DNA of 64,000 nt from Candidatus Rokuibacteriota bacterium (GCA_016188005.1 JACPIQ010000095.1:13066-77065), one strand, 5' to 3'. Positions 5,835 to 53,148 are shown, numbered from the stretch's first letter. Made by a program: numbers and translations. The notes: generated by a model from the sequence alone, not told the origin.

Positions 5835-6266
5835 TCACTGGCTCAGCATGTAGGCGAGGAAGTCGCCCTTCTCCCTGGGCGTGCACTCGCGTCCCAGCAC
5901 GCTCTGGCAATTGCGGCTGAACCACTTGTTGACCTTCTCGGGATCGGTGTAGCGGTGGGCCACCTTTGAGACGGCCATCGGCTCGATCGGCTTGCCGGCG
6001 CGCGTCTGGCCGGACGTCTGCGGGGTGGCGCCGTGGCAGGTGTCGCACGCCGGCGTATCCGGCTTGCCGCCGCCGGGCCGGGCCTTGTAGAAGGCGGCGC
6101 CGCGCGCGGCCGAGAAGCCGGCGAAGCCGGGATCGGCGGCGCGGGCCTGGGCTGCAAGGTCGGCCACGATGCGCTCGCGCGGGCCTTCGGCCCTCGCCGG
6201 CACGCTGCCGAGCAGCAGGAACAGGGACAGGGACAGGGACAGGCAGCGGGCGAGGGTCGTCGTCAT
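5835..6266 (-). CDS. SHP-like (DUF1924) monohaem cytochrome c
   Basis: Signal peptide, ACDTCH, GKPIEPMAVS, KWFSRNCQSVLGRECT (Asn ligand and disulfide pattern of sphaeroides haem protein). Confidence 0.88.
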   Translation of the reverse strand: MTTTLARCLSLSLSLFLLLGSVPARAEGPRERIVADLAAQARAADPGFAGFSAARGAAFYKARPGGGKPDTPACDTCHGATPQTSGQTRAGKPIEPMAVSKVAHRYTDPEKVNKWFSRNCQSVLGRECTPREKGDFLAYMLSQ

Positions 6267-7408
6267 CGCTCTGTCACTCCTTGAGGGATCGCGATCTTCG
6301 GGCCGTGGAAGCCGCCGGTGTCGGCGTCGCGGTGGCAGGCATTGCAGTTGCCGGAGCTGCGCACGGCCTTGCTCCTGAACACGGCCGGCGCGATGTCGGC
6401 GTGCGTGCGCTTCCAGTAGGGGGTGGCGGTGATGCGCAGCGGCTCGGCCGGCGAGCCGTGGCGGAACCCGTTGGCCGCCTTGGTGTCCCAGCTCTCGGCG
6501 GCGTAGGCCTGCAGGAACGCGCCGATGTCGGCGGCGGTGGCGGCCGGCAGGCGGGCGTCCTCGCCGAAATGGTCGGCCAGTCCCGCCATCATCGTCTTCC
6601 ACGAGGCCGCCGGCAGCAGGCTGGGGTGGTAGGCAGGATGGCAGTCGCCGCACTCCTTGGTGTAGGCGACGTGGCGCGGCATATCGGGGACGCCCCTGGG
6701 CGGCAGGGCGGCCAGCGCGCTCAGTCCGCCGCTGCTGACGGCGGCGATGGCGGCGACGCTCAACGCCCCCAGCCACGGGCGGGCCGACTCGAAACGCGGC
6801 GGAGGTGCCTCCCCCGGCAGGCGCTTGAAGCCCGTCACCATGGCCCGCGCGAGGTTCTGGCGCTCCACCACGCTGCTGACGGCGACGCCGGCCACATGCA
6901 GGCCTACCAGGGTGATCAGGGCAGCAGCGAGGCCTGCGTGGAGACTCTGGAAGGCGCGGCCGGCGGCATAGGAGACGACCCCCGCCAGGGGCCCGTGCTT
7001 CTCGACCCCGCCGAAGGCGACGAGGCCGCTGAGCAGCAGCGCGGCGACCGTCCCCAGGAGGGTGTAGATCATCATGGCGCCGGCCGGGTTGTGGCCGAGA
7101 TGGTGCGGCGGGCGCCCCCGCGCCAGATCCCTGAGGTAGGCCACCGCCGCCCGCGGGCGGAGGGGGAAGCTGGCGAAGCGGCTGGTCTCGGGCCCGAACA
7201 CCCCCCACACCAGCCGGAATGCGATCAGGCCGGCGATGGCATAGCCCAGGATGGCATGCGTGCCGAGCATCCACTTCGGCCCGAACCAGCCGATCAGCGC
7301 CGTCGCCAGCAGCAGGCCGGCCAGCGACCAGTGGAGCAGGCGCGTGGGCAGGTCCCACACGCGAACCGAGCGGGTCAGGGTTCCTCGATCGTTACCGTCG
7401 TCGCTCAT
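6263..7408 (-). CDS. Cytochrome b (Ni_hydr_CYTB-like) fused to a dihaem cytochrome c domain
   Basis: VRVWDLPTRLLHW, GHNPAG, HVAGV..NLARAMVTG, followed by ECGDCH..NCNACH. AGGAGG upstream. Confidence 0.9.
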   Translation of the reverse strand: MSDDGNDRGTLTRSVRVWDLPTRLLHWSLAGLLLATALIGWFGPKWMLGTHAILGYAIAGLIAFRLVWGVFGPETSRFASFPLRPRAAVAYLRDLARGRPPHHLGHNPAGAMMIYTLLGTVAALLLSGLVAFGGVEKHGPLAGVVSYAAGRAFQSLHAGLAAALITLVGLHVAGVAVSSVVERQNLARAMVTGFKRLPGEAPPPRFESARPWLGALSVAAIAAVSSGGLSALAALPPRGVPDMPRHVAYTKECGDCHPAYHPSLLPAASWKTMMAGLADHFGEDARLPAATAADIGAFLQAYAAESWDTKAANGFRHGSPAEPLRITATPYWKRTHADIAPAVFRSKAVRSSGNCNACHRDADTGGFHGPKIAIPQGVTER

Positions 7409-11890: not shown

Positions 11891-14113
11891 ATGGCCGCCA
11901 GAATCGTGGATCCGCGTGCGGAGGACGGCACGGAGACGCTCGCCACGGCCCAGGACGCCCGCCGCCGGCGCACCGTCCGCAAGGCCGCCCGGGAGCACGG
12001 CCGCTGGGTGCGCGAGGTCAAGGGCATCCTCGCGCTGGCGCTGGCCGGGTTCGCCCTGGTGGCGCTCTACGCCTTCGATCCCGCCCGTCACCCGCTGGAT
12101 CAGTCGAGCCCCGTGGGCCCGGTGGGGCTCTGGCTCGGCTCCGCGAGCTTCCAGGTCTTCGGCTATGCCGGCTACCTCTTCCCGCTCCTGCTGGTCTGTT
12201 ACGGCGCGGGCGCCTTCGTCCACTCACGAATCGCGCGAGGGTGGCCCGGTGTGGTGGGACTCGGGCTCCTCCTGGTGAGCGTGGCCGGCATCCTGGCCCG
12301 CGCCTCGGATACGCTGTCGGAGCTCCGCATCCACAAGGGCGGCCTCCTCGGCTGGGCCATCACCGAGGTCCTGCTGCGCTCCGTGGGGACGGTGGGGACG
12401 TGGATTCTTCTCCTGGCGATCATCCCGGTCGGGGCTCTCTTCGTCACCCAGGCCTCCCTGGGACTGGCCTCGCGCGGCGCGGGCGCGCGGCTCGCCGGCC
12501 TCTGGCGGCGGCGTCCCGCCCCCGGCCCGGCGGGCGCCACCCCCTCCCCGAACCCAGGCGAGGGCGTGGGCAGGCCCGAGGACTCCGAGCCGACCGCCCC
12601 GCCGCCCTTCGTGGTCAAGGAGCCGCCCCGGCCCAGGGCTGGGCTCGTGGAGAAGGGACTTGCCTGGCAGGAGACCTTCGACTTCGGCACCGGCGGGGCC
12701 CGGTCCTTCCAGCTGCCGGCGGTCGGGCTCCTGGCGGCCCCCCCCGCCACCGGACTCCAGCGGACGCGGGAGGAGCTCGAGGCCAATGCCAACACGCTCA
12801 AGCGAAAGCTCCAGGACTTCGGCGTCGAGGGGCACATCGTCCAGGCCAGCCCCGGCCCCGTCATCACCTCCTACGAGTTCGAGCCGGCGCCGGGCATCAA
12901 GGTGAGCCAGGTCGTCAACCTCTCCGACGACCTCGCCCTGGCCATGAAGGCCGCCGCCGTGCGCATCGTCGGGCCCATCCCGGGGCGGGGCACCGTGGCG
13001 GTGGAGGTGCCGAACCCGGAGCAGGCCACGGTGTACCTGCGGGAGATCCTGGTCTCCTCGGAGTTCATCGAGTCCAGGGGTAAGCTGCCGCTGGCGCTGG
13101 GCAAGGACACCACCGGCAACCCCGTGGTGTCCGACCTCACCGCCATGCCCCACCTCCTCATCGCCGGCTCGACGGGCAGCGGCAAGAGTGTGGGGCTCAA
13201 CACGATGATCTGCTCGCTGCTCTACAAGGCCACGCCGGCGGATGTGCGCTTCCTCCTCATCGACCCCAAGCGGCTCGAGCTGGGGGTCTACGAGGGCATC
13301 CCCCACCTCCTGGCGCCCGTGGTCACCGACGCCAAGGAGGCGGCCATGCGCCTCAAGTGGATCGTGGGGAAGATGGACGAGCGCTACAAGCTGCTCCAGG
13401 GCAAGGCCGTCCGCAACATCGAGGGCTACAACCGTGAGGTCCCGGCCGAGGAGAAGCTCCCTTACTGGATCGTGGTGGTGGACGAGCTGGCCGACCTCAT
13501 GATGGCCTCGGCCGGCGAGGTGCAGAACTCCCTCGTGCGCCTGGCTCAGATCGCGCGGGCCGTTGGCATTCACCTGATCGTCGCCACCCAGCGGCCGTCG
13601 GTTGACGTGGTGACCGGGCTCATCAAGGCCAATTTCCCCACGCGCATCGCCTTCCAGGTAGCCTCAAAGGTCGACTCGCGCACGGTGCTCGACCAGAACG
13701 GCGCCGAGGGGCTGCTCGGGCGCGGCGACATGATCTTCGTGCCCCCGGGGGCGGCGCGGCCCATGCGCGTGCACGGCTCCTGGGTGGCCGATGGCGAAGT
13801 CAAGGCCATCTGCGAGTTCCTCCGCAAGCAGGGCGCCGCCGTGTACGAGAAGGTGGAGCTGCCGCCCGCGGCGGAGAGCGGCGGCGAGGGCGGTGAGGAC
13901 CGGGACGACATCTACTGGGATGCCGTGAACCTGGTGATCGCCCAGCGCCAGGCCTCCATCTCGTTCCTCCAGCGCCGCCTCGGCCTCGGCTACCCCAAGG
14001 CGGCGCGCTTCATCGACATGATGGAGCAGGACCGGATCATCGGGCCCGGCCAGGGAGCCAAGCCGCGCGAGGTCCTGGTCGGCCCCGACTACCTGACGAA
14101 GCACGGCAGATGA
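11891..14113 (+). CDS. ftsK: DNA translocase FtsK
   Basis: N-terminal transmembrane domain, HLLIAGSTGSGKS, VVDELADLMM, ATQRPSVDV, gamma domain SISFLQRRLGLGYPKAARFID. Confidence 0.97.
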   Translation: MAARIVDPRAEDGTETLATAQDARRRRTVRKAAREHGRWVREVKGILALALAGFALVALYAFDPARHPLDQSSPVGPVGLWLGSASFQVFGYAGYLFPLLLVCYGAGAFVHSRIARGWPGVVGLGLLLVSVAGILARASDTLSELRIHKGGLLGWAITEVLLRSVGTVGTWILLLAIIPVGALFVTQASLGLASRGAGARLAGLWRRRPAPGPAGATPSPNPGEGVGRPEDSEPTAPPPFVVKEPPRPRAGLVEKGLAWQETFDFGTGGARSFQLPAVGLLAAPPATGLQRTREELEANANTLKRKLQDFGVEGHIVQASPGPVITSYEFEPAPGIKVSQVVNLSDDLALAMKAAAVRIVGPIPGRGTVAVEVPNPEQATVYLREILVSSEFIESRGKLPLALGKDTTGNPVVSDLTAMPHLLIAGSTGSGKSVGLNTMICSLLYKATPADVRFLLIDPKRLELGVYEGIPHLLAPVVTDAKEAAMRLKWIVGKMDERYKLLQGKAVRNIEGYNREVPAEEKLPYWIVVVDELADLMMASAGEVQNSLVRLAQIARAVGIHLIVATQRPSVDVVTGLIKANFPTRIAFQVASKVDSRTVLDQNGAEGLLGRGDMIFVPPGAARPMRVHGSWVADGEVKAICEFLRKQGAAVYEKVELPPAAESGGEGGEDRDDIYWDAVNLVIAQRQASISFLQRRLGLGYPKAARFIDMMEQDRIIGPGQGAKPREVLVGPDYLTKHGR

Positions 14114-14303
14114 CTGGCGAGCCGCAGCCGGAGGCGAGGCGAGCGGAGGTGGAGGTCAGGCGAGCGTGAGCGAGCCAGGCGAGCCGCAGCCCGCAGTGCG
14201 AGGCGCAGCCGAAGGCGAGCCGAGTAGAAGGATCGAGAGAGCGCGAAGCGCGCCGAGGCGAGCGGAGATGGAGATGGCCCGAGCGGAGCGAGGGAGCGGA
14301 CTC
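14112..14303 (+). repeat. Purine-rich, internally repetitive intergenic element (GCGAGC/GNA-triloop type)
   Basis: GGCGAGCCGCAGCC at 14116 and 14178. GAGGCGAGCGGAG(G/A)TGGAG at 14136 and 14255. Very few T on the + strand. Confidence 0.6.
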
Positions 14304-14969
14304 ATGACCACAGCGCTCCTGATCACGGCGCTGGTGGCGCTTGTGGGCCTGGGGCCCCCGCCGGCGGACGCCCAGACGATGGAGGAGGTGGTGTCGGGGC
14401 TCGAGGCCACCTATGCCCGGGTGCAGGACCTCCGCGCCGACTTCTCCCAGGTGTCTCACAACCGGAGCCTGGGCCAGGACATCAGGGCGGATGGCACCGT
14501 GTACCTCAAGAAGGGCGGGAAGATGCGCTGGGAGTACCGGAGCCCGTCGGCCCAGCAAATCGTCTCGGACGGCAAGTCCCTCTGGGTCTACACCCCCGAG
14601 CTGAACCAGGTGAACACGGGCGCCGCGCCCGAGGCCCTGGCCGGTCCGGCAGGAAGCTTCCTGGCTGGCCTCGGACGCGTGCGGGAGCAGTTCCACGTGC
14701 GCTTTCTCAACCCGGCCGCCAAGGTGGATACGGCCGGCCGCCCTGTGCTCGACCTCGCCCCGAAGGTACCCACGCCGCTGCTCACCCGGCTCGTGCTCTC
14801 GCTGGACCCGAAAGATTTCGTGGTGCGCCAGGCCGTGCTCTACGACCAGCTCCAGAACACGGTCACCATGACGTTCACCCGCGTGACGATCAACGCCGGG
14901 CTCAGCGATGCGCTCTTCGCCTTCACGCCACCCAAGGGCACGGCGGTGGTGCCGCTCGCGCCCCGGTAG
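14304..14969 (+). CDS. lolA: Outer-membrane lipoprotein carrier protein LolA
   Basis: Signal peptide, LRADFSQ, GTVYLKKGGKMRWEY, QQIVSDGKSLWVYTPELNQV. Follows ftsK. Confidence 0.92.
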   Translation: MTTALLITALVALVGLGPPPADAQTMEEVVSGLEATYARVQDLRADFSQVSHNRSLGQDIRADGTVYLKKGGKMRWEYRSPSAQQIVSDGKSLWVYTPELNQVNTGAAPEALAGPAGSFLAGLGRVREQFHVRFLNPAAKVDTAGRPVLDLAPKVPTPLLTRLVLSLDPKDFVVRQAVLYDQLQNTVTMTFTRVTINAGLSDALFAFTPPKGTAVVPLAPR

Positions 14970-14999
14970 CGCCAGCCAGGAACAAGGGAGGAGACGGCC

Positions 15000-15497
15000 G
15001 TGGCCGCCGAGAACAGCTTCGACATCGCGTGCAAGGTGGACATGCAGGAGGTCGCCAACGCCATCAACCAGGCGAGGAAGGAGATCGAGACCCGCTACGA
15101 CCTGAAGGGGACACGGAACGAGATCGCGCAGGAGAAGATGGAGATCGTCCTGACCTCCGCCGACGAGATGAAACTCCGGGCCGTCCTGGACATCCTGCAG
15201 TCCCGGCTTCACCGGCGCGGCATCGATCTCAAGGCGCTCACCATCGGCGAGCCCGAGCCCGCGGCCGGGGGAACCCTCCGCCAGACGGTTACGCTCCAGG
15301 ACGGCATCCCCGTCGAGAAAGCCAAGGAGATCGTGCGCCTGATCAAGGACTCGAAGATCCGGGTCCAGGCCTCGATCCAGGAGAAGCAGGTGCGCGTCGC
15401 GGGAAAGAACCGAGACGATCTCCAGGCCGTCATCGCGCTGGTCAAGGCCAAGGATCTCGGCGTCGCGCTCCAGTTCACCAACTACCGCTCCACCTGA
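15000..15497 (+). CDS. yajQ: YajQ-family nucleotide/c-di-GMP-binding protein
   Basis: SFDIACKVDMQEV..RYDLKG, KVQASIQ-like RVQASIQ, RVAGKNRDDLQAVI, LQFTNYR. Confidence 0.95.
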   Translation: MAAENSFDIACKVDMQEVANAINQARKEIETRYDLKGTRNEIAQEKMEIVLTSADEMKLRAVLDILQSRLHRRGIDLKALTIGEPEPAAGGTLRQTVTLQDGIPVEKAKEIVRLIKDSKIRVQASIQEKQVRVAGKNRDDLQAVIALVKAKDLGVALQFTNYRST

Positions 15498-15905
15498 TTG
15501 CCTCCGCCACGTGGAGGTGCTGGCCCCCCCAGGTCCGGCGGCAGAGGGCCCGGATACCGGTGGCCGAGGGGCCTCTCCGGTGGTTCCCTGTCGGCGAGCT
15601 TGACAGCAATCCGCCCTGGCCCAGGCTCGGAACGGCACACGACAGGGGAGCTGGGTGGCGCCCAGTTGCTGGTGGCCAGTTCGAGAAGCCCTCTCCGGAC
15701 GCTGGGTTAGCCTGTAGGCCCAGCGGGGGACGGAATGCTCCCGGCGGGCATCCCTCCCCTTCCGGAACCCCGGTCCAGTGACGGCGGTGCCGGGACCGGC
15801 GCCGGCGGGGCGGCCGTGGGCCTTCCGTTTACGAAAGCCCGGACTTCATTGGCGAATACTTGTGATGAGGTCAGAGCTTTGGGTTCCCTCTCGCACCGAG
15901 CGCCA

Positions 15906-15998
15906 TGTCGACGGCGTTGACACCTCACCACATTTCCGTGGACAGCCCATGCCTAAGTCAACGAGATCAGTGAAATTCCTGCGTGGCCCTCCACTTGC
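15906..15998 (+). promoter_or_regulatory. sigma54 promoter with upstream 17-bp box (PEP-CTERM gene 1)
   Basis: TGGCCCTCCACTTGC at 15984-15998. TGTCGACGGCGTTGACA at 15906-15922. Distal TGTCGGCGAGCTTGACA at 15589-15605. Confidence 0.75.
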
Positions 15999-16052
15999 GC
16001 ATCCCGTCAGATGCCAGTGGAAGCCACAAACGGGCTGGCAGGGGGAGAGAAC

Positions 16053-16961
16053 ATGGTGAGCAAGCTGGTCGGAGCCGTGATGGCGCTGCTGGTCGCTGTC
16101 CTGCTCGGGGGGGAGCCGGCCGAGGCGAGTCACCTCGTGCTGGGGAGCGCTGAGGACCTCGCGCTGAGAACCCTTGCGCTGGAGGGGTCAGACGCTACGG
16201 GACTGCATAGGGACACCACCTACACCGGTCAGCTGGGGGCATTCCTGAGGGCTGGCCGTCACGAGCCCATTCTCGTCCTGGGGACCGTGGACCTCGGCTT
16301 CGGCGGACTGGGATTCCCCGGGGACACCGTCTACGTCAGCGAGGCGGGCCTCGCCGCCATCATTGCCGCGGGCGATTTGCACAGGTCCGACTTCAGCGCC
16401 CTCTACATCCAGAGCCCGGGGGCGTGCTGCACGGAGAGACATGCGGGCGCCGCGCCGTTCCAGGCGGACATCGGCGCCTTCTACGGTGAGGGCGGCAGCC
16501 TGGCCATCCAGGACTACGGCGGCCGCGACTGGGGGGCGGCACTGCCATTCCCTACGCCGCCTCCTGGTGCCGTGAGGGGGTTCGACACGGCGGGCGGCAC
16601 CGTCGGTACGTTCTGCTGGGACAGCGAGGTTTTCACGGCCGATGCGCTGGCCAAGGGGTTCACCCAGCCCCCGGTGCTGGGCTGCTGGGCCCATCAGGCG
16701 TATGACACGGCCTACTTCGGGGACGCGTCGGCTCTCGGCCTGTCGGCGGCCTTTCTCAGCCTCGTCGACTCCGGCCCGGCACACCCCCCGGGGTTCTCGA
16801 GCTTCCTCGCTCTCGGCGGCGGCCTCGGGACAGTCGGTGGCTGCCCCACCTGCCCGCCGGGCGACGGAACTCCCGGCGTTCCGGAGCCGGCCACCCTGCT
16901 CCTCCTGGGCGCCGGGCTCCTCGTGCTGGCTTGCTGGCGGAATCTGCGCAGAGTGTTCTAG
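16053..16961 (+). CDS. PEP-CTERM sorting-domain protein 1
   Basis: Signal peptide, C-terminal VPEPATLLLLGAGLLVLACWRNLRR (PEP motif, TM helix, basic tail). Confidence 0.92.
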   Translation: MVSKLVGAVMALLVAVLLGGEPAEASHLVLGSAEDLALRTLALEGSDATGLHRDTTYTGQLGAFLRAGRHEPILVLGTVDLGFGGLGFPGDTVYVSEAGLAAIIAAGDLHRSDFSALYIQSPGACCTERHAGAAPFQADIGAFYGEGGSLAIQDYGGRDWGAALPFPTPPPGAVRGFDTAGGTVGTFCWDSEVFTADALAKGFTQPPVLGCWAHQAYDTAYFGDASALGLSAAFLSLVDSGPAHPPGFSSFLALGGGLGTVGGCPTCPPGDGTPGVPEPATLLLLGAGLLVLACWRNLRRVF

Positions 16962-17069
16962 AGGCCCGATCAGCCGGCTACACGGCATCCTCTCACGGGC
17001 GCCAGGGATGATCCTGGCGCCCGTGGTCTTTCTGTTCTTTGCCGGTACAGGTTTGGTAGGCTGTGCCAC

Positions 17070-19052
17070 GTGCTGGTCATCGCCGCGCTCCTGCTTCTCG
17101 CCGCCGCCAGCCCGGCCGCCGCCGCGGATGGGCAGTCTGCCGGCGAACCGGTCCCGGATGCTTCGACGACCCCCCCCGCGCTCGCCGCCGTCATCGAGTT
17201 GCTGAAGCGGGGGGATGCCGTCGGGGCCCTCGCCGGAGCCCGGGAGTTCGTCAAGAGCCAGCCTGGCTCGGCGGTCGGGCACGAGGTGCACGGGATCGCT
17301 GCCACGGCGAGCCGGCTGCCGCGCGAGGCCTCGGGGGCCTTCTACGAGGCGCTGCGCCTGGAGCCGGGGCGGCTCGGCGTCATGGTGCGGCTCGGGCAGC
17401 TCGCGCTGGATTGGCGCGACCCGCAGCGGGCCGAGAGCTGGTTTCGCAAGGCGCTCGCGGCGAACGCCGATCTCCACACGGCGCGACGCGGCCTCGCGGT
17501 GACCCTGCTCACGCGGCGCCAGCTCGACGCGGCGCTCGCCGAGTTGCGCGAGGTACTGAGGCGCTCGGGCGGACGGGACGTGGAGGCCAAGCGCCTCATC
17601 GGGCAGGTTTACCACGACGCGGGCCGCCCCGCCGAGGCCGAGCCCATCCTCGACGAGGTGCTGGCGGCGAGGCCTGACTCCATGGCCACGATTCTGCTCC
17701 AGGGCCTGGTCAAGCTCGAGCTGGGAAAGGACGCCGAGGCCGAGCGGCTGTTCGAGAAGGTCGTCGAGCGCGATCCCAGGTCCCCCGGGGCGCGCCTGGG
17801 GCTGGCAATGATCCAGCGGTCGCGCGGAGATCTCGCCATGGCCGCGACAGAGATGGAGAGCATCGCCAGGGACAACCCCGCGTGGTCGCTGGCTCACTTC
17901 GAGCTCGGACGCACTCTCGCGGCTCAGCGCGAGCTGGGCGCGGCGCTCCGTGCCTTCGACCGCGCCGAGCAGACCAGCCCCGCCCCTGCCGTGACACGGG
18001 TCCGAGGCGCCCAGGCTCTCTTCGTCGCGGGAGAGGCAGACCGGGCTCTCCTCCGGGCGCGGGCCTCACTCGCCTCCCCGGGCGCGGCGCCCCTCGCCCG
18101 CGCGCTCATCACTCAGATCCACCTGGCGAAGGGGATGCCCGAGACCGCCGAGCGTGAGCTCGTGAAGGCCGCGGCCGTCGCCCCTCAGGACGTGACGGCG
18201 CTCCTGCAGCTGGCCCGCTTCTATCTCGGCCAGCGCCGGCCCGCCGACGCGGCGCGCCGGTTCGAGGAGGCCGCGCAGGCGCGGCCCAACGCCTCCGGGC
18301 CGCTCGCTGGCCTCGTTGACGCCTATATGGCGCTGGGCCAGACCGACCTGGTGCTGGCCACCGGGGAGCGGCTCCTGCGTGCCCAGGGGGAGACCGCTGG
18401 CGCCTACGTGGCCTTTGCCGCGATCAACGAGAAGGCTGGGCGGCCGGCGGAGGCCCTGGCCGCCTATGCGCGCGCCCTCGACAAGGAGCCCCACCACCTG
18501 GCCGCAGCCCGGGCCCGCGCCAGCCTGCTCGAGCGTCAGCAGCGGGTGGCCGAGGCCATTCAGCTCCTCGAGGAAACAGCCCGCGCACACCCGAAGCAGA
18601 CGCTGCTTCTCGTCGAGCTCGGGCGGATCCAGGAACGTGCGGGGAACCCCGCGGCTGCCGCGGCCGCCTACCGCCGCGCTCTCGAGAGCGCGCCCGCCAG
18701 CGCGGAGGTGATGAACAACCTGGCCTACCTCCTCAGTGCCGATCCGGTCAGCCGCGACGAGGCCCTGACGCTGGCCGAGCGGGCGCACGCGCTGGCACCC
18801 CGGAGCCCCGCAATCGCCGACACCCTCGGCTGGCTCCTGTACCAGAAGGGCGACCTGGGGCGGGCCGAGCCCCTCCTCGCGCAGGCTGTCCAGGCCGCGC
18901 CCGGCCTGCCAGCGATCCGCTACCACCTCGGTCTCGTCTATGCCCGCCAGGGCAAGACCGCCGAGGCCAGGCGGCAGCTCAGGGAGGCCCTCGAGGCCCC
19001 TGGCTTCACCGAGGCGGACGCGGCCAGGAAGGCGCTTGAGGCGCTGAAATAG
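17070..19052 (+). CDS. PrsT-like multi-TPR exported protein
   Basis: Signal peptide, many TPR units, C-terminal NNLAYLL..ADTLGWLLYQKG..IRYHLGLVY typical of PEP-CTERM-system TPR proteins. Confidence 0.85.
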   Translation: MLVIAALLLLAAASPAAAADGQSAGEPVPDASTTPPALAAVIELLKRGDAVGALAGAREFVKSQPGSAVGHEVHGIAATASRLPREASGAFYEALRLEPGRLGVMVRLGQLALDWRDPQRAESWFRKALAANADLHTARRGLAVTLLTRRQLDAALAELREVLRRSGGRDVEAKRLIGQVYHDAGRPAEAEPILDEVLAARPDSMATILLQGLVKLELGKDAEAERLFEKVVERDPRSPGARLGLAMIQRSRGDLAMAATEMESIARDNPAWSLAHFELGRTLAAQRELGAALRAFDRAEQTSPAPAVTRVRGAQALFVAGEADRALLRARASLASPGAAPLARALITQIHLAKGMPETAERELVKAAAVAPQDVTALLQLARFYLGQRRPADAARRFEEAAQARPNASGPLAGLVDAYMALGQTDLVLATGERLLRAQGETAGAYVAFAAINEKAGRPAEALAAYARALDKEPHHLAAARARASLLERQQRVAEAIQLLEETARAHPKQTLLLVELGRIQERAGNPAAAAAAYRRALESAPASAEVMNNLAYLLSADPVSRDEALTLAERAHALAPRSPAIADTLGWLLYQKGDLGRAEPLLAQAVQAAPGLPAIRYHLGLVYARQGKTAEARRQLREALEAPGFTEADAARKALEALK

Positions 19053-19192
19053 CGGGTCCCGGCCGAGTCTCCCGCCCGGCAGCCCAGCGTGCGCCCCGCG
19101 GCAAGGCGTAAGAAGGGTCGACACCCTCTGTTCTGACGACCTCTGGCCGGCATGGAGCAACCCGTGGAAAACATTGAGGCCCGGCACGAGCA

Positions 19193-19287
19193 AGTCGGGA
19201 AAGCTTACAGCCCCGCCCCGCGGCGGTGCCACGAAGGAGTGAAGATCTTGTATTTGAATGCGTTTCTTTAAGTGGCACGCCGGCTGC
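19193..19287 (+). promoter_or_regulatory. sigma54 promoter with upstream 17-bp box (PEP-CTERM gene 2)
   Basis: TGGCACGCCGGCTGC at 19273-19287. AGTCGGGAAAGCTTACA at 19193-19209. Inverted copy CGTAAGAAGGGTCGACA at 19107-19123. Confidence 0.8.
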
Positions 19288-19388
19288 AGTGCTTGCGCAC
19301 CAGCTGAATTGGAACGCTCCAACTAACTAGTGCGCCGGATGGTTTGGGCGGGCAGGCCGGACCCAGTCGAACTCGAAAGGAGCAGAGA

Positions 19389-20261
19389 ATGCGACGTGCC
19401 ACTCTCGGGGCAGTTCTGGCGACAACAGTTCTGACCGGGCTCTTCTGGTTCAGCCCGGCGTCAGCCGGAAACATCTGGTTGACAGGCCATGACGCGGATT
19501 TCCACTGCGCGTTCGGTGCTCAGTGCAATCACTTCGGCATCGCGCTAGACTTCGCGCGGCAGGATGCGCCGGACAAGACCAAGCCGCTCCTCTTCCTGGA
19601 CTCGGGGGGCGAGGTCGCCAGCGCAGCGGGATCGGCTGGCGCCAGGGCGAGGAACACCGTCGAAGGCGCAGGCTCTCCGTTCCCATTCGTCGTGGTTGAC
19701 CCCTCGACGCCCGCCTTCGCGGCCTTGGCGCTGACGACCGCGTCGTTCAGCGCCATCGTGATCGCGTCGGACTCAACCTGCGGCGGTTGCGACAACAACG
19801 CCGCGGACATCGCGGCGATCAACGCCAGGACGGCTGACATCACCGACTTCTTCAATGCCGGAGGCGGCTTGGTGTACTTCGCCGGGGCCGCCAACAGGGA
19901 CACCTACTACGACTCGGTGCCGATCCCCGCAGCGGCGGTTGCCGTGTCTCCGCCCTTCAGCCTGACGGCCGACGGGGTTGCGCTCGGCCTGCTGGATCCT
20001 GCGGACACCGACTGCTGCGCCACCCACAACAGCTTCTCGCTTCCTGGGGCCGGCAGTGCGCTCAAGGTGGCCGAGCTCGACTCGCTGGGCTTTGCTGAGA
20101 CCCTGTTCGCCGGCGACGTGACGATCGGCGGCGGCGGCTTCGAGCCCGGCTGCGGCACTGCAACGACTCCGCCCTGCTCAGTGCCTTCTCCCGCTGCGCT
20201 GCTGCTGCTTGGCCCGGCGATCGGCGCCTTTGGATACTGGGAATGGAGGCGCCGCAAGTAA
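19389..20261 (+). CDS. PEP-CTERM-like protein 2 (VPSP variant)
   Basis: Signal peptide, C-terminal VPSPAALLLLGPAIGAFGYWEWRRRK. AAGGAG upstream. Confidence 0.85.
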   Translation: MRRATLGAVLATTVLTGLFWFSPASAGNIWLTGHDADFHCAFGAQCNHFGIALDFARQDAPDKTKPLLFLDSGGEVASAAGSAGARARNTVEGAGSPFPFVVVDPSTPAFAALALTTASFSAIVIASDSTCGGCDNNAADIAAINARTADITDFFNAGGGLVYFAGAANRDTYYDSVPIPAAAVAVSPPFSLTADGVALGLLDPADTDCCATHNSFSLPGAGSALKVAELDSLGFAETLFAGDVTIGGGGFEPGCGTATTPPCSVPSPAALLLLGPAIGAFGYWEWRRRK

Positions 20262-20306
20262 GACGCCTTAGTCGTCAGGGCTGACGATCCGGATGCCGGA
20301 GCGCCT

Positions 20307-20336
20307 GAGCGCCGCGGGGTAACCCCCGCGGCGCTC
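20307..20336. terminator. 13-bp perfect GC hairpin after PEP-CTERM gene 2
   Basis: GAGCGCCGCGGGG-TAAC-CCCCGCGGCGCTC. No U-tract, so a terminator role is uncertain. Confidence 0.45.
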
Positions 20337-20741
20337 GCCCTGTCTGCCTGCTCGGCTCTGGCCTACGTCAACCTCCTGCCGGCCTCCTCCGGACCTCCTT
20401 CCAGGCGCCCAGACGCCGCCTTCCTCTGCAACCGTCGAGTGAGGCTCGGTCCTTGTCGGGCTTGCCCTGAGCGCCCCATAATCGCCCGCGACATCTCTCC
20501 CAGCGCCGTCACCCGGCCGAACCCGAGCAACGAAGCGCACTTGGCCGGAAGTTGGATCTCCGAAGCCTGAGGCGGAGCTGTCGGACCGGTTTACATCAGG
20601 CCGGGGCCTCAACTCAGATGCCGCGCCCGGGAATGAGTCAAACGGGTCAGGGAAGGTAGAGCCGGGGGCCCAGGACGCCGCCCGAGCGGTAGAGATGCCT
20701 GGCGATGAGCCCGTCGGGGATTACCCGAATCGGGCCGGACG

Positions 20742-20834
20742 CGGCACCCAGGTTTACAGCTGCAAAGGGCGTCATGCCTTCCCCCAGGCCAAACGGTTGA
20801 TGCGTCAGGCAATTATCTTCGGCACGATTTCTGC
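20742..20834 (+). promoter_or_regulatory. sigma54 promoter with upstream box and IHF-like site (PEP-CTERM gene 3)
   Basis: CGGCACGATTTCTGC at 20820-20834. CGGCACCCAGGTTTACA at 20742-20758. Distal TGTCGGACCGGTTTACA at 20579-20595. IHF-like CATCAACCGTTTG on the minus strand at 20790-20802. Confidence 0.78.
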
Positions 20835-20896
20835 TAGTGAAGCTTTGCACGAGAGTTCATTGCGAGTGCCCTATTAGTGGGCCAGAGGAGACAACC

Positions 20897-21988
20897 ATGA
20901 TTCGGAAGGCCGGAGCGTTGTGGCTATGCGTGGGGCTGGCTATGGTTCTCGTGGGCGGGTGGGCACCGCTCGCGGGCGCGGGAGGAGTGGTCACCAACGG
21001 CACCGTGACTCTTGGGATCAACGACCATGGGGCGTTGAACTTCGCTGGTACCGGGCTGATCTTCAACGCGACCGGCAACGACAGCACGTTCCCGGGTTGC
21101 ACCTGCGAAGGCTGGGGCGCGGGGATCGTGAGTTCCGGCATCTCGGGATATCAGAACACCGCCTTCGGGGGACCGGTCAACCTGTCTCTGGTGAGCTTCG
21201 TCTCGACCGCCAGCACGGCCACGTCGGTCGTGAACATTAACGACCCGTCAGGTGGCCCGGCGCTGCAGGTCAGCCAGGCCTACCATCCGATCGCCGGTAC
21301 GCCGAACCTGTACCAGGTCGATGTCGCGATCACGAACCTGACCGGCGCCCCTCTCGCCGCCGGAGACCTCGTCTACCGGCGGGTGATGGACTGGGACATC
21401 GAGCCGACGCCGTTCAGTGAATTCGTCACCATCCAGGGCGTGCCAGCGCTGCTGGGCGTCGCCAATGGCAACAACGTCCGGCGCACGGGCAATGACGGTT
21501 TCGACACCGCGAATCCGCTCGCCACGGTGTCCGGCGGTATGATTGGCGGCGGACCGGGGTGCGCGTCCGGCGTTCTCGCCCTGAACAGCAACTTCACCGA
21601 CTGCGGTCCTGCTGACCATGGCTCGGTCTGGGATTTCGAGTTCGAGGCGCTCGCAGCCGGGGCGACCCGTAGCTTCGCCATCTTCTACGGCGCGGCGGCG
21701 ACCGAGGCAGGGGCCGACCTCGCCCGTTCGATGGTCGACGGCGATCCCACGGACGTCGAGATCGGCCTGTTCTCGTACGGTCAGTGCAACAGCGGGTCCA
21801 ATGCCTCCTGCAGCGAGATCACGGGCACGCCCAACACCTTCATCTTCGGCTTCGGTGCAGCGGGCGGCATCCTGCTTCCGCCTCCGCCTCCGCCCACCCC
21901 GGGCGTGCCCGAACCCGCCTCGCTGCTTCTGCTCGGCGCGGGGCTGGTCGCCGCGGCGGCCCTGAAGCGGGCGTATCGCAGGAAGTAG
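20897..21988 (+). CDS. PEP-CTERM sorting-domain protein 3
   Basis: Signal peptide, beta-rich body (YRRVMDWDIEPT), poly-Pro linker, VPEPASLLLLGAGLVAAAALKRAYRRK. GAGGAG upstream. Confidence 0.92.
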   Translation: MIRKAGALWLCVGLAMVLVGGWAPLAGAGGVVTNGTVTLGINDHGALNFAGTGLIFNATGNDSTFPGCTCEGWGAGIVSSGISGYQNTAFGGPVNLSLVSFVSTASTATSVVNINDPSGGPALQVSQAYHPIAGTPNLYQVDVAITNLTGAPLAAGDLVYRRVMDWDIEPTPFSEFVTIQGVPALLGVANGNNVRRTGNDGFDTANPLATVSGGMIGGGPGCASGVLALNSNFTDCGPADHGSVWDFEFEALAAGATRSFAIFYGAAATEAGADLARSMVDGDPTDVEIGLFSYGQCNSGSNASCSEITGTPNTFIFGFGAAGGILLPPPPPPTPGVPEPASLLLLGAGLVAAAALKRAYRRK

Positions 21989-22060
21989 ACGCGCCAGACA
22001 CCTAGTTGCAACGCGGGGCCCTCTTCCCGTAACGTGGCAGGAAACGGGAAGGGGGCCCCG

Positions 22061-24112
22061 ATGGTTTCTGCGCTGATCCCGATCCGGTCCGCCGTTCTGC
22101 TGGTCGCTGTGTCGATGTGGCTGGTCGCCACCGTGCCCCACTCGCTCGCCGCGCCCATGGATATCGGCGCGTCGACCGACCCCAACCTCCGCATCGATCC
22201 GCGAGCGCCCGACAGGCCCGGCGCTGCGCCGTCCCCGAAGCTCGCCGCGGCGCTCCAGGCTTACAAGGGCGGCGATTTCGACAAGGCCCTGTCCCTGGCG
22301 CGAGAGCATGTCAAGGAGCAGCCGCGCTCGGCCGTGGGCCACGAGCTGCGCGGCGCTGCGGCCATGGCCAAGGGACAGCTCAAGGAGGCCGAGGAGGCGC
22401 TCAACGAGGCGCTCCGGATCGAGCCGAAGCGGGCCGCGACCCTGGCCATGCTCGGGGAGCTGTACTACCGGCGCAACGATCCGAGGAGAGCCGAGGACCA
22501 GCTTCGACAGGCGCTGACGATCGACTCGCGGTTGCCAGGCGGTCACCGCTTCCTCGCCCTTGTGCTGTTTCGGCAAGGCAAGGTCGGGCCGGCTGTGGAG
22601 GCCGCGCGAGAGGCGGTGCGGGTCTCGGGCGACGCCGACCCGGAGGCCCATTACGTCCTCGCGTCGATGTACTTCGAGCTGGGCCGGCCGGCCGAGGCCG
22701 AGCCGTTGCTGGCCCGCGCGCTGGCCGGACGCCCCGACTCGGCCCAGACGAACACGCTTCAGGGCTTGGTCAAGCTCCAGCTCCGGAAGATCGACGAGGC
22801 GGCGACATTCCTGCAGAAGGCGGCGGCCAAGGACCCGAGCTCGCCGTGGGTACGCCTGGGCATGGCCCTCGTCCAGCGCTCGCGGGGCAACATGGCGCAG
22901 GCCCGCAGCGACCTCGAGAAGCTGGCCAAGGACCAGCCGGCCTGGCCGCTCGTCAATCTCCAGCTCGGCGAGACGCTGCTGGCCGACAAGCAGGTGGAGG
23001 CGGCCCTGCGTGCCTTCGACGCCGCCGAGAAAGCCAGCCCGAACCGTTCACTGACCCAGTTTCAGGCGGCGCGCGTGCTGCTGGCCTACGGCGAGGCCGA
23101 CCGCGCCATCGCGCGGGCCCGGGGCGCCCTCGAGTCCAAGGAGGTGGCACCCGCGGCGCGCGTCGTGATCGCGCAAGCCTATCTGGCCAAGAAGAGCCCC
23201 GACCTGGCCGAGAAGGAGCTCCAGGTGGCGCTGGCGGCGGCGCCGAAGGACCCCGCGCCCGCGATGCAGCTCGGGAGCTTCTATGTCGGGCAGAAGAAGT
23301 ACGCCGAGGGGCTCCGCCAGTTCGAGAAGGCGGCGAGCCTGCGCCCTGAGGCCTTCGAGCCCCTGGCCGCCCAAGCCGAGACGCGGCTCCTCCTCAAGCA
23401 GGGGGACGAGGCAGTGAAGGTGGCCGAGCGGATGGTCGAGACGCAGAAGGAGGCGCCCGATGCCTACGTCTTCCTCGGTGGCATCCAGGAGCGCGCCGGG
23501 CGCTTCCAGGACGCCGCCAGGAGCTACCAGAAGGCCATGGAGAAGCAGCCGAACCACCTGGGCGCGGCGCTCTCGCTGGCGGCGCTGCACGAGCACGAGA
23601 AGCGCCCCCAGGCGGCCGCCAAGCTGCTCCGCGAGGCCGCCGACGGCCACCCGCAGGCGGCGCTGCCGCTCGTCCGCTTGGGGATCCTCAAGGACCGCGA
23701 GGGCGACAGGCCCGCAGCCGTTGCGGCGTACCGGGCGGCGCTCCAGCGAGACGGTCGCAACGCGGTGGCGCTGAACAACCTCGCCGACGCCCTCGCGAAG
23801 GACCCGAAGACGCGCGACGAGGCGCTGGGGCTCGCCGAGCGCGCCTATCAGGCCGCGCCCCGGAGCCCGGTGATCGCCGATACGCTCGGCTGGCTCCTCT
23901 TCCAGAAGGGGACCCTCGATCGGGCCGAGCAGCTCATCGCCCAGGCGGCTACCGCCCTGCCGGGAAACTCCGAGATCCGCTACCACATGGGTCTGGTCTA
24001 CGCCAAGCGCGGGAAGAAGGTCGAGGCCCGCCGGGAACTGGAGGAGGCACTCAAGTCCCCGTCCTTCCCCGAGGCGGCGGCGGCGCGGAAGGCGCTCGAT
24101 CAGCTCAGGTAG
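22061..24112 (+). CDS. PrsT-like multi-TPR exported protein (paralogue of 17070-19052)
   Basis: Signal peptide, TPR units, near-identical C-terminal block RDEAL.LAERA...APRSP.IADTLGWLL.QKG..AARKAL..L. Confidence 0.85.
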   Translation: MVSALIPIRSAVLLVAVSMWLVATVPHSLAAPMDIGASTDPNLRIDPRAPDRPGAAPSPKLAAALQAYKGGDFDKALSLAREHVKEQPRSAVGHELRGAAAMAKGQLKEAEEALNEALRIEPKRAATLAMLGELYYRRNDPRRAEDQLRQALTIDSRLPGGHRFLALVLFRQGKVGPAVEAAREAVRVSGDADPEAHYVLASMYFELGRPAEAEPLLARALAGRPDSAQTNTLQGLVKLQLRKIDEAATFLQKAAAKDPSSPWVRLGMALVQRSRGNMAQARSDLEKLAKDQPAWPLVNLQLGETLLADKQVEAALRAFDAAEKASPNRSLTQFQAARVLLAYGEADRAIARARGALESKEVAPAARVVIAQAYLAKKSPDLAEKELQVALAAAPKDPAPAMQLGSFYVGQKKYAEGLRQFEKAASLRPEAFEPLAAQAETRLLLKQGDEAVKVAERMVETQKEAPDAYVFLGGIQERAGRFQDAARSYQKAMEKQPNHLGAALSLAALHEHEKRPQAAAKLLREAADGHPQAALPLVRLGILKDREGDRPAAVAAYRAALQRDGRNAVALNNLADALAKDPKTRDEALGLAERAYQAAPRSPVIADTLGWLLFQKGTLDRAEQLIAQAATALPGNSEIRYHMGLVYAKRGKKVEARRELEEALKSPSFPEAAAARKALDQLR

Positions 24113-35575: not shown

Positions 35576-35723
35576 CCATGCCCAGCATGCCTGGCGGCAT
35601 GCTGGCCGTGGGCCAGAAGGTGGGCGCCACCCGTTTTCACTTCCCCGTCACCATGTCCAACATGCCTGGCGGCATGTTGGCCGTGGGCGAGAGGGTCGGG
35701 GCCACCCGTTTCTCACTTTCCCC
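35576..35723. repeat. Tandem pair of about 72-nt hairpin-containing repeats
   Basis: Copies at 35576-35646 and 35651-35723. Stems CCAGCATGCC/GGCATGCTGG and CCAACATGCC/GGCATGTTGG, loop TGGC. Confidence 0.85.
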
Positions 35724-36570
35724 ACCACGCGAGGATGGCCTCTCGGAGGAGCCAGGAGGCGGTGATGGCGGTCCGGCCGGAGGGGTCCCAGGCCTGGGCC
35801 ACCTCCACCATATCGGTGCCGACCAGGTGGCAGCCCTCCAGGAGCCGGACGATGTCTACCAGTTCCGAGGCACGGAGCCCGCAGGGCTCCGGCGAGCCCG
35901 TGCCAGGCGCCTCCGAGGGATCGAGCACGTCCACGTCGATGGTCACGTAAAGCGGGTGGGGCCGGAGCTCGGGCAGCAGGCGCCGCACGGCTTCCACCGG
36001 AGCCAGGGCATGCGCCGGATAGAGGTGTGCGGCGCCGCGGCGGTACTCCGAGCGGTCGCCCGTGCGCATGCCGACCTGATAGACACGCTCGGGAGGCATC
36101 ACCTCCATCACCCGGGCCATCGCCGAGGCATAGCAGTAACGCTCGCCGAGGAACTCCTCGCGCAGGTCCGGGTGGGCGTCGAGCTGGAGGAGGCGGAGAT
36201 CCGGGATGGCTGGCGCCAGCGCCTCGATGACAGGCAGCGTGGCGGTGTGGTCTCCGCCGAGCATGATGGCCGCGAGGTTAGGCCGCCAGAAGCGCCGGAT
36301 CTCCTCCCGCGCCCGGGCGAGCCGCTCCCGCGGCGGGCCCTCGCCGAGCTCGCAGTCGCCGAGGTCGCAGATCGCGAGATCCTCGAGGTCACGGTCCAGG
36401 GTGGGGGAGTAGGTCTCGATGGAGTCGGAGAGCGCCCGGAGGTCCCGGGGACCGCGGTGGGCGCCCAGGCGCAGGTTCACGGTGCCCTCGAAGGGGATGC
36501 CGAAGAGGACGGCCCGGGCCTCCGGGAGGGAGGCCCGGCAAGCGATGAAGCGGGGGTTCGCCGGGATCAA
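35713..36570 (-). CDS. speB: Agmatinase-family ureohydrolase
   Basis: GIPFEGT, LGGDHTAT, LDAHPDLR, TIDVDVLDPSEAPGTGSPEPCG. TTG start directly after the pdaD stop. Confidence 0.93.
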   Translation of the reverse strand: MIPANPRFIACRASLPEARAVLFGIPFEGTVNLRLGAHRGPRDLRALSDSIETYSPTLDRDLEDLAICDLGDCELGEGPPRERLARAREEIRRFWRPNLAAIMLGGDHTATLPVIEALAPAIPDLRLLQLDAHPDLREEFLGERYCYASAMARVMEVMPPERVYQVGMRTGDRSEYRRGAAHLYPAHALAPVEAVRRLLPELRPHPLYVTIDVDVLDPSEAPGTGSPEPCGLRASELVDIVRLLEGCHLVGTDMVEVAQAWDPSGRTAITASWLLREAILAWWGK

Positions 36571-37053
36571 CTACAGCAGATCGTCGTCGGACAGGAGCGT
36601 CACGGCGGCCAGGGCGCAGCCGGTGCGCTCCACCCGGTGCTCCACGGCGGCGACCTTCATCTGGGCGATCCGCCATCCGCGGGCCCGGAAGGCCTCCTGG
36701 AGCATCTGCACGATCATCGCCTCGGCTTCCTCCCGGGTGGCCTTGTCGTGGAACTCCATGATGACCCCGTTCTTGGCGGGATCGTCGGGGAGCGCCCAAC
36801 CGACGGCCGCCGCCACCACCTCGCCCGGCACCTCGCTGGTCACGGCGGCGTACGCCGTGGGAACGATGGCGCCCGGCTTGATCCGGGGCAAGGAGACGAC
36901 CTCGGCGGCGGGAGGGAAGATGCTCGAGACCTTCACCAGGTTGACGTTGCCGATGCCCGCCGCCAGGAGGGCGTTGTCGAAGGCGTTGAGGGGAGTCGAG
37001 CCTTCCGCGTTGCCAGCCGTCGCGGCCACCTTCGTCACCGGCTTCCAGCCCAT
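36571..37053 (-). CDS. pdaD: Pyruvoyl-dependent arginine decarboxylase
   Basis: AFDNALLAAGIGNVNLVKVSSIFPP (Ser-Ser cleavage site), GVIME. Confidence 0.92.
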   Translation of the reverse strand: MGWKPVTKVAATAGNAEGSTPLNAFDNALLAAGIGNVNLVKVSSIFPPAAEVVSLPRIKPGAIVPTAYAAVTSEVPGEVVAAAVGWALPDDPAKNGVIMEFHDKATREEAEAMIVQMLQEAFRARGWRIAQMKVAAVEHRVERTGCALAAVTLLSDDDLL

Positions 37054-37251
37054 CCGCTCCCTCCTCTCGCCCCACGCGAGGTCGCGCTTCCGGGGCCCCT
37101 CACACGAGGGGAATTTTGATTGCTCATGTTAGCGGCTCGACTCGGGAACGCAAGCAAAAACTTGCCCCGCGCAGCGCTCAGCCGCCGCGCGCTGGGCCCG
37201 CGGCGCGGCGCCCGGAGAGCTCGCCGAGGGGCGCGAAAGCCAATTTTTTTC

Positions 37252-37280
37252 TTGCAATGCCTTTTCGCTGGTCCTACATT
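37252..37280 (+). promoter_or_regulatory. sigma70-type promoter of speD-speE
   Basis: TTGCAA-N17-TACATT preceded by an AATTTTTTT UP-like tract. Confidence 0.65.
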
Positions 37281-37341
37281 GAGCGAAATTCTGCCGCAAG
37301 TTTTTTTCGGCGGAGAGCTACAGGAAGGGAGGAGAGAACGC

Positions 37342-37734
37342 GTGCACGCCTTGGGGCGACACCTGCTGCTCGAGCTGTTCGACTGCGACGCAGAGGCCAT
37401 CAACAGCCTTGAAGTCGTGAAGACGGCGATGGTGGAGGCCGCCCGGCGAGCCCAGGCCACCATCGTGGACGTCGTCTTTCACGAGTTCAACCCGTTCGGC
37501 ATCAGCGGAGTCGTCGTCATCGCCGAGTCGCATCTGGCGATCCACACGTGGCCGGAGTACCGCTACGCGGCGGTGGACGTGTTCTCCTGCGGCGACGTGC
37601 TGCAGCCTCAGGTCGCGGCCGACTACCTCGTGGAGCAGTTCGGCGCCGCGCGGGCGTCGGTCGTTGAGGTCCAGCGGGGTGTCTTCCTGCACGCCGGCAT
37701 GCCGATGCCGCACAAGCCCGTCGCCGTCGCCTGA
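37342..37734 (+). CDS. speD: S-adenosylmethionine decarboxylase proenzyme (SpeH type)
   Basis: LGRHLLLELFDC, FNPFGISGVVVIAESHLAIHTWPEY, DVFSCG. GGAG upstream of the GTG. Confidence 0.95.
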   Translation: MHALGRHLLLELFDCDAEAINSLEVVKTAMVEAARRAQATIVDVVFHEFNPFGISGVVVIAESHLAIHTWPEYRYAAVDVFSCGDVLQPQVAADYLVEQFGAARASVVEVQRGVFLHAGMPMPHKPVAVA

Positions 37735-53065: not shown

Positions 53066-53076
53066 CAGTTCATCCG

Positions 53077-53104
53077 GGAACTTTCCCGGCCTCGTCCTGT
53101 CCTA
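53077..53104 (+). promoter_or_regulatory. Second ECF promoter, upstream of the DUF4139 gene
   Basis: GGAACTT-N15-GTCCTA, same spacing as 51501-51528. Confidence 0.7.
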
Positions 53105-53148
53105 CCGGGCAGAGGCACCAGAGCCCGATCAGACAGGAGGACGGATCC

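Follow-up and report, generated by a model that had tools for sequence, protein, structure and literature searches.

A predicted PEP-CTERM-box/sigma-54 regulon on a variable island in a Rokubacteria-like lineage of the Methylomirabilota

The DNA analyzed here (hereinafter the window) is a stretch of 64,000 nucleotides from Candidatus Rokuibacteriota bacterium (GCA_016188005.1, JACPIQ010000095.1:13066-77065), with positions counted from its first nucleotide. It contains a cluster of five genes, all on the plus strand, three of which (PEP1, PEP2 and PEP3) code for signal-peptide proteins with a PEP-CTERM or variant C-terminal sorting tail and two (TPR1 and TPR2) for short PrsT-like TPR proteins. 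Upstream of each PEP gene we find a sigma-54 (RpoN) element of the form GG-N10-GC together with copies or remnants of a 17-bp box. These cis elements match the PEP-CTERM box/sigma-54 motif of Proteobacteria and are conserved within the lineage of the host, which is itself non-proteobacterial; from them we infer that this host possesses a PrsR-type activator and RpoN. We consider it likely that PEP1, PEP2 and PEP3 (the last probably along with TPR2) are each driven by a sigma-54 promoter dependent on a PrsR-type activator. It is also likely, if less firmly so, that they form a working PrsR/RpoN-type PEP-CTERM-box regulon under purifying selection in the Methylomirabilota (Rokubacteriales-like), which would be the first outside Proteobacteria. 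Its site is a variable island, flanked by yajQ and rimO, with cargo that most resembles betaproteobacterial genes. This extends a known regulatory module to a second phylum and is not a new mechanism.

Box and sigma-54 elements upstream of the PEP genes

Scanning the window with the pattern TGTCGRN5YTKACA at no more than one mismatch recovers five matches against 0.58 expected, a number that none of 100 shuffles reaches, and all five (15589, 15906, 19107 on the minus strand, 19193 and 20579) are confined to three intergenic regions. The candidate sigma-54 elements, scored by their mismatches to TGGCAC-N5-TTGCW, end in their GG-N10-GC form 53, 100 and 61 nt before the start codons of PEP1, PEP2 and PEP3, respectively, with good Shine–Dalgarno sequences in place. 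A preliminary description of this DNA had located these sites correctly 5' of the three signal-peptide genes, and the extra boxes it proposed at 15589, 19107 (inverted) and 20579 are borne out, each being matched at one mismatch or fewer and occupying ranks 2-4 with the matrix introduced below. The elements, with their scores in that matrix, are:

15589-15605, + strand: distal box of promoter 1, TGTCGGCGAGCTTGACA; 378 nt 5' of the -24 element; 0 mismatches; 17.6 bits
15906-15922, + strand: proximal box of promoter 1, TGTCGACGGCGTTGACA; spacer 61 nt; 0 mismatches; 11.1 bits
15984-15999, + strand: -24/-12 element of promoter 1, TGGCCCTCCACTTGCG; GG-N10-GC at 15985-15998; 2 mismatches; predicted start near 16010
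19107-19123, - strand: distal inverted box of promoter 2, TGTCGACCCTTCTTACG; 86 bp 5' of the proximal box; 1 mismatch; 16.7 bits
19193-19209, + strand: proximal box of promoter 2, AGTCGGGAAAGCTTACA; spacer 63 nt; top matrix match of the window, 17.8 bits
19273-19288, + strand: -24/-12 element of promoter 2, TGGCACGCCGGCTGCA; GG-N10-GC at 19274-19287; 1 mismatch; predicted start near 19299
20579-20595, + strand: full box of promoter 3, TGTCGGACCGGTTTACA; 224 nt 5' of the -24 element; 0 mismatches; 16.3 bits
20742-20758, + strand: degenerate proximal site of promoter 3, CGGCACCCAGGTTTACA; spacer 61 nt; -1.6 bits with the matrix trained on Proteobacteria
20790-20802, - strand: match to the pattern of IHF sites, CATCAACCGTTTG; 1 mismatch
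20820-20835, + strand: -24/-12 element of promoter 3, CGGCACGATTTCTGCT; GG-N10-GC at 20821-20834; 2 mismatches; predicted start near 20846

Every promoter has two sites, with promoters 1 and 2 combining a full proximal box with a second box farther 5'. In the preliminary description boxes ended 62, 64 and 62 bp before the three sigma-54 sites, which was read as a fixed spacing. The arithmetic is right (61, 63 and 61 nt when counted to the T/C of the -24 hexamer) and the spacing applies to promoters 1 and 2, but the third 17-mer is not a box: only its right half, GTTTACA (20752-20758), is conserved, and 20742-20758 is a half-site rather than a full box by any threshold. At promoter 3 this half-site occupies the 61-nt position, and the full box, also conserved, is 224 nt away. 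Likewise, the intervening DNA had been called AT-rich; since the box-to-promoter spacers have 52-56% GC in a window of 71.6% GC, this holds in relative terms only. The local GC fraction around each of the three promoters is about 0.59-0.62.

Searching for a box followed after 55-70 nt by a sigma-54 site yields two strong composites in the window, as compared to 0.06 expected. The signal resides in this composite and in the conservation described below. A sigma-54 matrix derived from PEP3 orthologues alone ranked promoter 3 first (17.3 bits) and missed promoters 1 and 2; it was too specific owing to its TTGCTT bias, and mismatches to the consensus were used instead. The best sigma-54-like site outside the cluster (53165-53180, TGGCACTCACCCTGCT, one mismatch) overlaps codons for the signal peptide (W-L-A-L-T-L-L) of a DUF4139 protein and was rejected as a coding coincidence. 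A weak composite on the minus strand (42720/42648) falls within a coding region and was dismissed too.

The preliminary description could not vouch that its box equals the published one. Haft et al. 2006 (PMC1569441) reported, for PEP-CTERM genes of Proteobacteria, an upstream 17-nt motif 1 with the 3' end TTTACA, which is sometimes repeated; the copy nearest to the promoter is separated by 62.8 ± 10.6 nt (range 32-92) from a 17-nt sigma-54 motif 2, which in turn lies 71 ± 38.5 nt from the start codon. We ran an expectation-maximization motif search from random seeds on the 200 nt 5' of the sigma-54 sites in 42 proteobacterial PEP3-orthologue promoters, an input that included neither the window nor the Methylomirabilota-like loci fetched until then. 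It converged on TGTCGGAAATTTTTACA; the spacer has its mode at 62-64 nt, 19 of the 42 regions have one of 61-64 nt, and other groups fall at 70-75, 86-103 and 163-165 nt. The spacer classes among the orthologues (about 63, 73, 86-88, 98-103 and 165 nt) hint at a preference for one helix face. Over the 128,000 positions of the window this matrix places 19193, 15589, 19107 (minus strand) and 20579 at ranks 1-4 (16.3-17.8 bits) and 15906 at rank 6, with four matches of at least 14 bits against 0.17 expected. The unseeded matrix, its modal spacer and the agreement with the text of PMC1569441 all point to the window box being the published PEP-CTERM box, an identification made from the text of that paper and the re-derived matrix rather than from the published logo.

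Set beside the module of Haft et al., the window shares the 17-nt box ending in TTTACA/TTGACA and sometimes repeated, the GG/GC sigma-54 element (here with 1-2 mismatches to the consensus), spacers close to the published mean (61 and 63 nt at promoters 1 and 2, respectively), a distance of 53-100 nt to the start codon, large intergenic regions, mostly single-gene PEP-CTERM units and an adjoining PrsT-like TPR gene. It differs in its host, which belongs to the Methylomirabilota rather than Proteobacteria; in the central 5 nt of the box, which are GC-rich rather than A/T-rich; in TPR proteins of 660-692 aa that score below the PrsT cut-off and lack the lipobox cysteine; and in promoter 3, which would rely on a half-site and a full box 224 nt away, outside the published range. 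As for the downstream genes, PEP1 and PEP3 pass the PEP-CTERM model TIGR02595, whereas the VPSP tail of PEP2 stays below its threshold.

A measured counterpart comes from Aquincola tertiaricarbonis, where pepA is RpoN1-dependent, has its transcription start mapped at a TGGCAC/CTGCTT promoter and is followed by prsT (PMC9850573). As in that case, a prsT-type TPR gene of the window follows a PEP-CTERM gene that has an upstream enhancer, and the promoter 3 element (CGGCAC...CTGCT) is close to that of Aquincola (TGGCAC...CTGCTT). In contrast, RpoN dependence and start sites were measured in Aquincola and are predicted from sequence in the window, which comes from a different phylum and combines three cargo genes with two TPR paralogues in a single cluster. 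The floc genes of Zoogloea are a related case cited in PMC9850573, and we find that the Zoogloea homologues of PEP3 (51-54% identical) carry TGTCGACGATTTTTACA at a spacer of 63 nt.

Conservation of the elements and lineage of the host

RecA, PilT and YajQ encoded on the contig of the cluster group at ≥90% identity with proteins of Methylomirabilota, Candidatus Rokubacteria and candidate division NC10. The lineage is therefore non-proteobacterial, as the preliminary description had surmised, and belongs to the Methylomirabilota/Rokubacteria; because these three genes share a contig with the PEP cluster, a binning artefact is ruled out. Positions 11893-40310 are moreover identical to contig JACPUB010000478.1 (28,418 bp) of a further assembly, GCA_016192485.1.

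The conservation of the elements was assessed on 160 loci homologous to PEP3 from genome and metagenome collections, from which 131 non-redundant upstream regions were examined. Among homologues of at least 46% identity nearly all have both a box and a sigma-54 site, the exceptions being five loci (L086, L013, L026, L113 and L118) with a sigma-54-like site but no box. Below 46% identity, homologues from Actinobacteria, Chloroflexi and cyanobacteria carry neither element, and a proteobacterial homologue at 45% (L042) carries both. The pairing of a PEP3 homologue with a PrsT-like gene recurs in Proteobacteria and in L019, a locus from a metagenome-assembled genome labelled Methylomirabilota, where the PEP3 homologue precedes the PrsT-like gene and has a perfect box and sigma-54 site. 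Thus, the restriction to Proteobacteria reported in 2006 is not upheld, given this locus and the lineage of the window; it was an observed distribution and not a mechanistic requirement.

Closer relatives were obtained by exact-protein look-ups of PEP1 and PEP2 homologues. Two contigs, L166 (which extends through rimO) and L167, have the same cluster order, and L162, L163, L164 and L086 are more distant. Between the window and L166 the motif columns are 90% identical at promoter 1, as against 52% for the remainder, and 94% as against 66% at promoter 2, with a weaker contrast at promoter 3 (73% vs 56%). At the distant loci L162, L163 and L086 the motifs retain 60-66% identity and the flanks 27-43%. 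Taking the elements singly, at promoter 1 the distal box is identical to L166 at 16 of 17 positions amid DNA of 52% identity, the proximal box is conserved at 15 of 17 in L166/L167 and the -24/-12 element at 14 of 16 in L166. At promoter 2 the proximal box is wholly identical in L166 (17/17), L162 and L163 having boxes at that spacing too, and the -24/-12 element is conserved at 15 of 16 positions in L166 and 13 of 16 in both L162 and L163. The distal inverted box of this promoter is conserved at 15 of 17 positions in L166, and an inverted box 85-91 bp 5' of a proximal one recurs in L166, L167, L162 and L170. At promoter 3 the full box is conserved at 15 of 17 positions in L166/L090, where its spacer is 223 nt, the half-site GTTTACA at 7 of 7 in L166, L090 and L086 with its distance from the promoter unchanged, and the -24/-12 element at 13-14 of 16 in L166 and L086. 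Four further loci with PEP1 homologues (L168-L171) also have a box and a sigma-54 site before each PEP-CTERM gene. We argue from the retention of both elements in the homologues and from these footprints that the sites are under selection within this lineage.

Some conserved sequence lies beyond the boxes and sigma-54 elements. Directly 5' of the promoter 1 -24 element, positions 15963-15983 (GAGATCAGTGAAATTCCTGCG) are near-invariant in L166/L167, more so than expected of a plain spacer, and match an IHF site poorly. Between the full box and the half-site of promoter 3 there are two conserved blocks, GAATGAG (20631-20637) and the palindrome CCCGAATCGGGCCGG (20724-20738), the latter being CCCG-N3-CGGG in all relatives; these blocks could be the site for a second regulator.

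Another relative, L173 (positions 1-21505, corresponding to 71-27168 of the window), has the same flanking order of polA-coaE-rsmA...RNase J-ftsK-lolA-yajQ...rimO-pgpA-cinA. It carries one PrsT-like TPR gene after yajQ and a rimO fragment, with the PEP genes absent, and serves as a natural negative control in that its 21.5 kb contain no boxes. Therefore, the PEP/TPR cluster is a variable island between yajQ and rimO. Several genes of L173 appear fragmented, which may reflect assembly errors.

The activator and alternative readings

In the mechanism that we envisage, the RpoN holoenzyme would be held as a closed complex at the GG-N10-GC element, with the promoter silent. A PrsK-type kinase would presumably phosphorylate a PrsR-type response regulator of the NtrC family encoded outside the window; this regulator would bind the 17-bp boxes (consensus TGTCGR-N5-YTTACA) 5' of the promoter, loop the DNA to the holoenzyme and use ATP for promoter opening. 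The PEP products, in turn, would presumably be exported and processed by an exosortase, given their Sec signal peptides and PEP-type C-terminal sorting tails.

Several observations weigh against this reading. On their own, sigma-54-like sites show no enrichment in the window, whether counted as GG-N10-GC (9 vs 7.9 expected) or by mismatches to the consensus (15 vs 11.9 ± 3.6); the elements of promoters 1 and 3 have two mismatches each, and the proximal site of promoter 3 is a half-site. The two TPR proteins fail the equivalog test for PrsT (TIGR02917, cut-off 312.2 bits), scoring 279 (TPR1) and 281.6 bits (TPR2), and Haft et al. 2006 (PMC1569441) saw the motif in no group other than Proteobacteria. 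Scanning the approximately 55 open reading frames of the window against Pfam or NCBIfam identified no sigma-54 activator, RpoN, PrsK, PrsR or exosortase, and a search for the activator signatures GAFTGA, ESELFGH and Walker A returned nothing relevant in six frames of the window and 172 fetched loci. The related loci that were fetched likewise contain no rpoN, prsK or exosortase gene. With a view to an annotated PrsT/PrsR locus, tblastn searches of PEP3 and TPR2 against plasmids returned only unrelated TPR proteins, the inspected Azospirillum region being without PEP-CTERM genes, and an exact look-up of the last protein of the window gave no match. An activator encoded outside the window, as the preliminary description had supposed, would fit these data.

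The same cis architecture might instead answer to an activator that is not an orthologue of PrsR, with another NtrC-family protein recognizing the 17-bp box in a host lacking PrsK/PrsR. In keeping with this, no PrsR was found, the TPR partners form a distinct short subfamily below the PrsT cut-off, and the literature library searched contains no paper linking PrsR, PEP-CTERM or exosortase to Methylomirabilota. However, the failure to find PrsR pertains to the window and the fetched loci only, with no dedicated genome-wide search, and the box consensus, spacing and pairing of PEP with PrsT-like genes are as in Proteobacteria. An orthologous DNA-binding domain is therefore the simplest explanation, and we regard a non-orthologous activator as unlikely. 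More improbable still is that the promoters are inert relics carried in with the genes from Betaproteobacteria, with any expression arising from other promoters. The closest named homologues of PEP3 are indeed betaproteobacterial (Pelomicrobium, Thiobacillus, Zoogloea and Rhodocyclaceae, 51-62% identical), the cluster sits between the conserved yajQ and rimO genes and is missing from L173, and the PEP genes have lower GC and third-position GC than the neighbouring genes. Nevertheless, relics would decay at the rate of their flanks, yet the motifs at two promoters are kept well above the surrounding intergenic DNA (90-94% vs 52-66%) and persist in L162, L163 and L086 despite flanks of 27-43% identity; nor is a sigma-70-type promoter predicted before PEP1 or PEP2.

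Chance matches, or box ends (TTGACA/TTTACA) that are in reality sigma-70 -35 hexamers, would be in keeping with the two boxes ending in TTGACA and with the lack of enrichment of GG-N10-GC sites in a GC-rich window. We hold this to be scarcely credible: the box counts, composite counts and matrix ranks are far above their nulls, the elements are conserved across genomes, and the sigma-70 interpretation of TTGACA was rejected as there is no -10 partner at the box positions.

Enhancers of the NtrC type with paired strong and weak sites are well known, as at glnAp2, and other sigma-54 promoters, such as nifH and Pu, are assisted by IHF. The promoters of the window resemble these types in having two activator sites each, a presumptive action over 60-380 nt and relatively AT-rich intervening DNA, and differ from the IHF-assisted ones in having no conserved IHF site. 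The IHF-like site of the preliminary description does exist as a match with one mismatch on the minus strand, but the pattern is not enriched (three matches in the window vs 1.67 expected) and the match is conserved in relatives at only 7 of 13 and 5 of 13 positions; it is probably non-functional. We accordingly rejected an IHF-assisted promoter with a conserved WATCAANNNNTTR between enhancer and promoter, the single match being found at promoter 3 only and being neither conserved nor enriched.

If the PrsR/RpoN-type regulon is as proposed, the cis sites, the cargo genes and the (unseen) activator would have moved between phyla together, suggesting an exchange of regulon and regulator between Betaproteobacteria and Methylomirabilota. 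A neighbour-joining tree of PEP3 homologues is too noisy to show the direction of transfer. The local variant of the module would then consist of short non-lipoprotein PrsT paralogues and of promoters with two boxes or with a distant box plus half-site. Few cis-regulatory codes are readable directly from sequence; the PEP-CTERM box combined with a sigma-54 promoter is one of them, and its presence marks genes whose exosortase-sorted products are linked to flocs and biofilms. Being intact and conserved in uncultured Rokubacteria-like bacteria of soil and groundwater, it would allow the matrix-protein regulon of an uncultivated phylum to be listed from sequence alone, and we predict that box-bearing Rokubacteria-like genomes encode RpoN and a PrsK/PrsR pair.

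Cargo proteins, TPR proteins and the wider window

The cluster lies between the housekeeping genes ftsK-lolA-yajQ (11891-15497) and rimO-pgpA-cinA-recA-pilT (from 24128 onward) and comprises:

16053-16961, + strand: PEP1, 302-aa signal-peptide protein ending in a PEP-CTERM tail
16993-17036, + strand: strong hairpin (16993-17026) resembling an intrinsic terminator, and T-run, after PEP1; 15-bp stem with 11 G-C pairs, tail TCTTTCTGTT
17070-19052, + strand: TPR1, short PrsT-like TPR protein, 660 aa
19389-20261, + strand: PEP2, 290-aa signal-peptide protein ending in a variant (VPSP) sorting tail
20897-21988, + strand: PEP3, 363-aa signal-peptide protein ending in a PEP-CTERM tail
22061-24112, + strand: TPR2, short PrsT-like TPR protein, 72 nt 3' of PEP3

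No terminator is predicted between PEP3 and TPR2 (21988 to 22061), and the two are probably co-transcribed.

All three PEP proteins begin with a signal-peptide-like sequence. The preliminary description had assigned a PEP-CTERM tail to each, which is correct for PEP1 (PF07589 at 28.2 bits; TIGR02595 at 20.4 bits, cut-off 16) and PEP3 (24.9 and 20.7 bits), both of them above the PF07589 gathering score. PEP2, however, fails both the PEP-CTERM and the IPTL-CTERM models, with a weak match to the latter, and ends in VPSPAALLLLG...RRRK. Its family displays one passenger domain with either a PF07589 (PEP-CTERM) or a PF18203 (IPTL-CTERM) tail, while the window PEP2 and its relatives of 86-89% identity match neither tail model; the family illustrates how sorting tails are exchanged on a single cargo.

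In BLASTP comparisons PEP1 and PEP2 have the tail alone in common. Nevertheless, their passenger families are remote homologues by hhalign (probability 98.7%, E 2.9e-16), with L(E/T)G(S/H)DA..H and a CC pair that is conserved among their common motifs, and both are confidently predicted to adopt an α/β fold (predicted local distance difference test score 84-86). These models have no significant match in the PDB, the best (E 0.02-0.09) being a weak likeness to class-I glutamine amidotransferase and peptidase E, and the sequence and fold searches assigned no function to the cargo proteins. The window PEP3 is 63% identical to its L166 counterpart (5925-7016), as compared to 83% for PEP1, and is about as near to that of Pelomicrobium (62%), although the sorting tails of PEP3 in the window and L166 are nearly identical; the PEP3 passenger domain is either fast-evolving or replaced.

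TPR1 and TPR2 are paralogues of 47% identity. At 660 aa (TPR1) and 683-692 aa (TPR2) they are short relative to the 899-position PrsT model, their N-termini have signal-peptide character without the cysteine lipobox, and they group with P0227-P0232 as a short PrsT-like subfamily.

Elsewhere in the window, polyamine genes at 35713-38654 code for agmatinase, a pyruvoyl-dependent arginine decarboxylase, SAM decarboxylase and spermidine synthase. Positions 51531-54558 encode, one after the other, an ECF sigma factor, a zf-HC2 anti-sigma factor and the secreted DUF4139 protein, with large TPR proteins at 54750-59143, and a tungsten-type aldehyde:ferredoxin oxidoreductase lies at 59752-61575. The sole Rfam match in the whole window is a tRNA, the tRNA-Val at 61583-61658.

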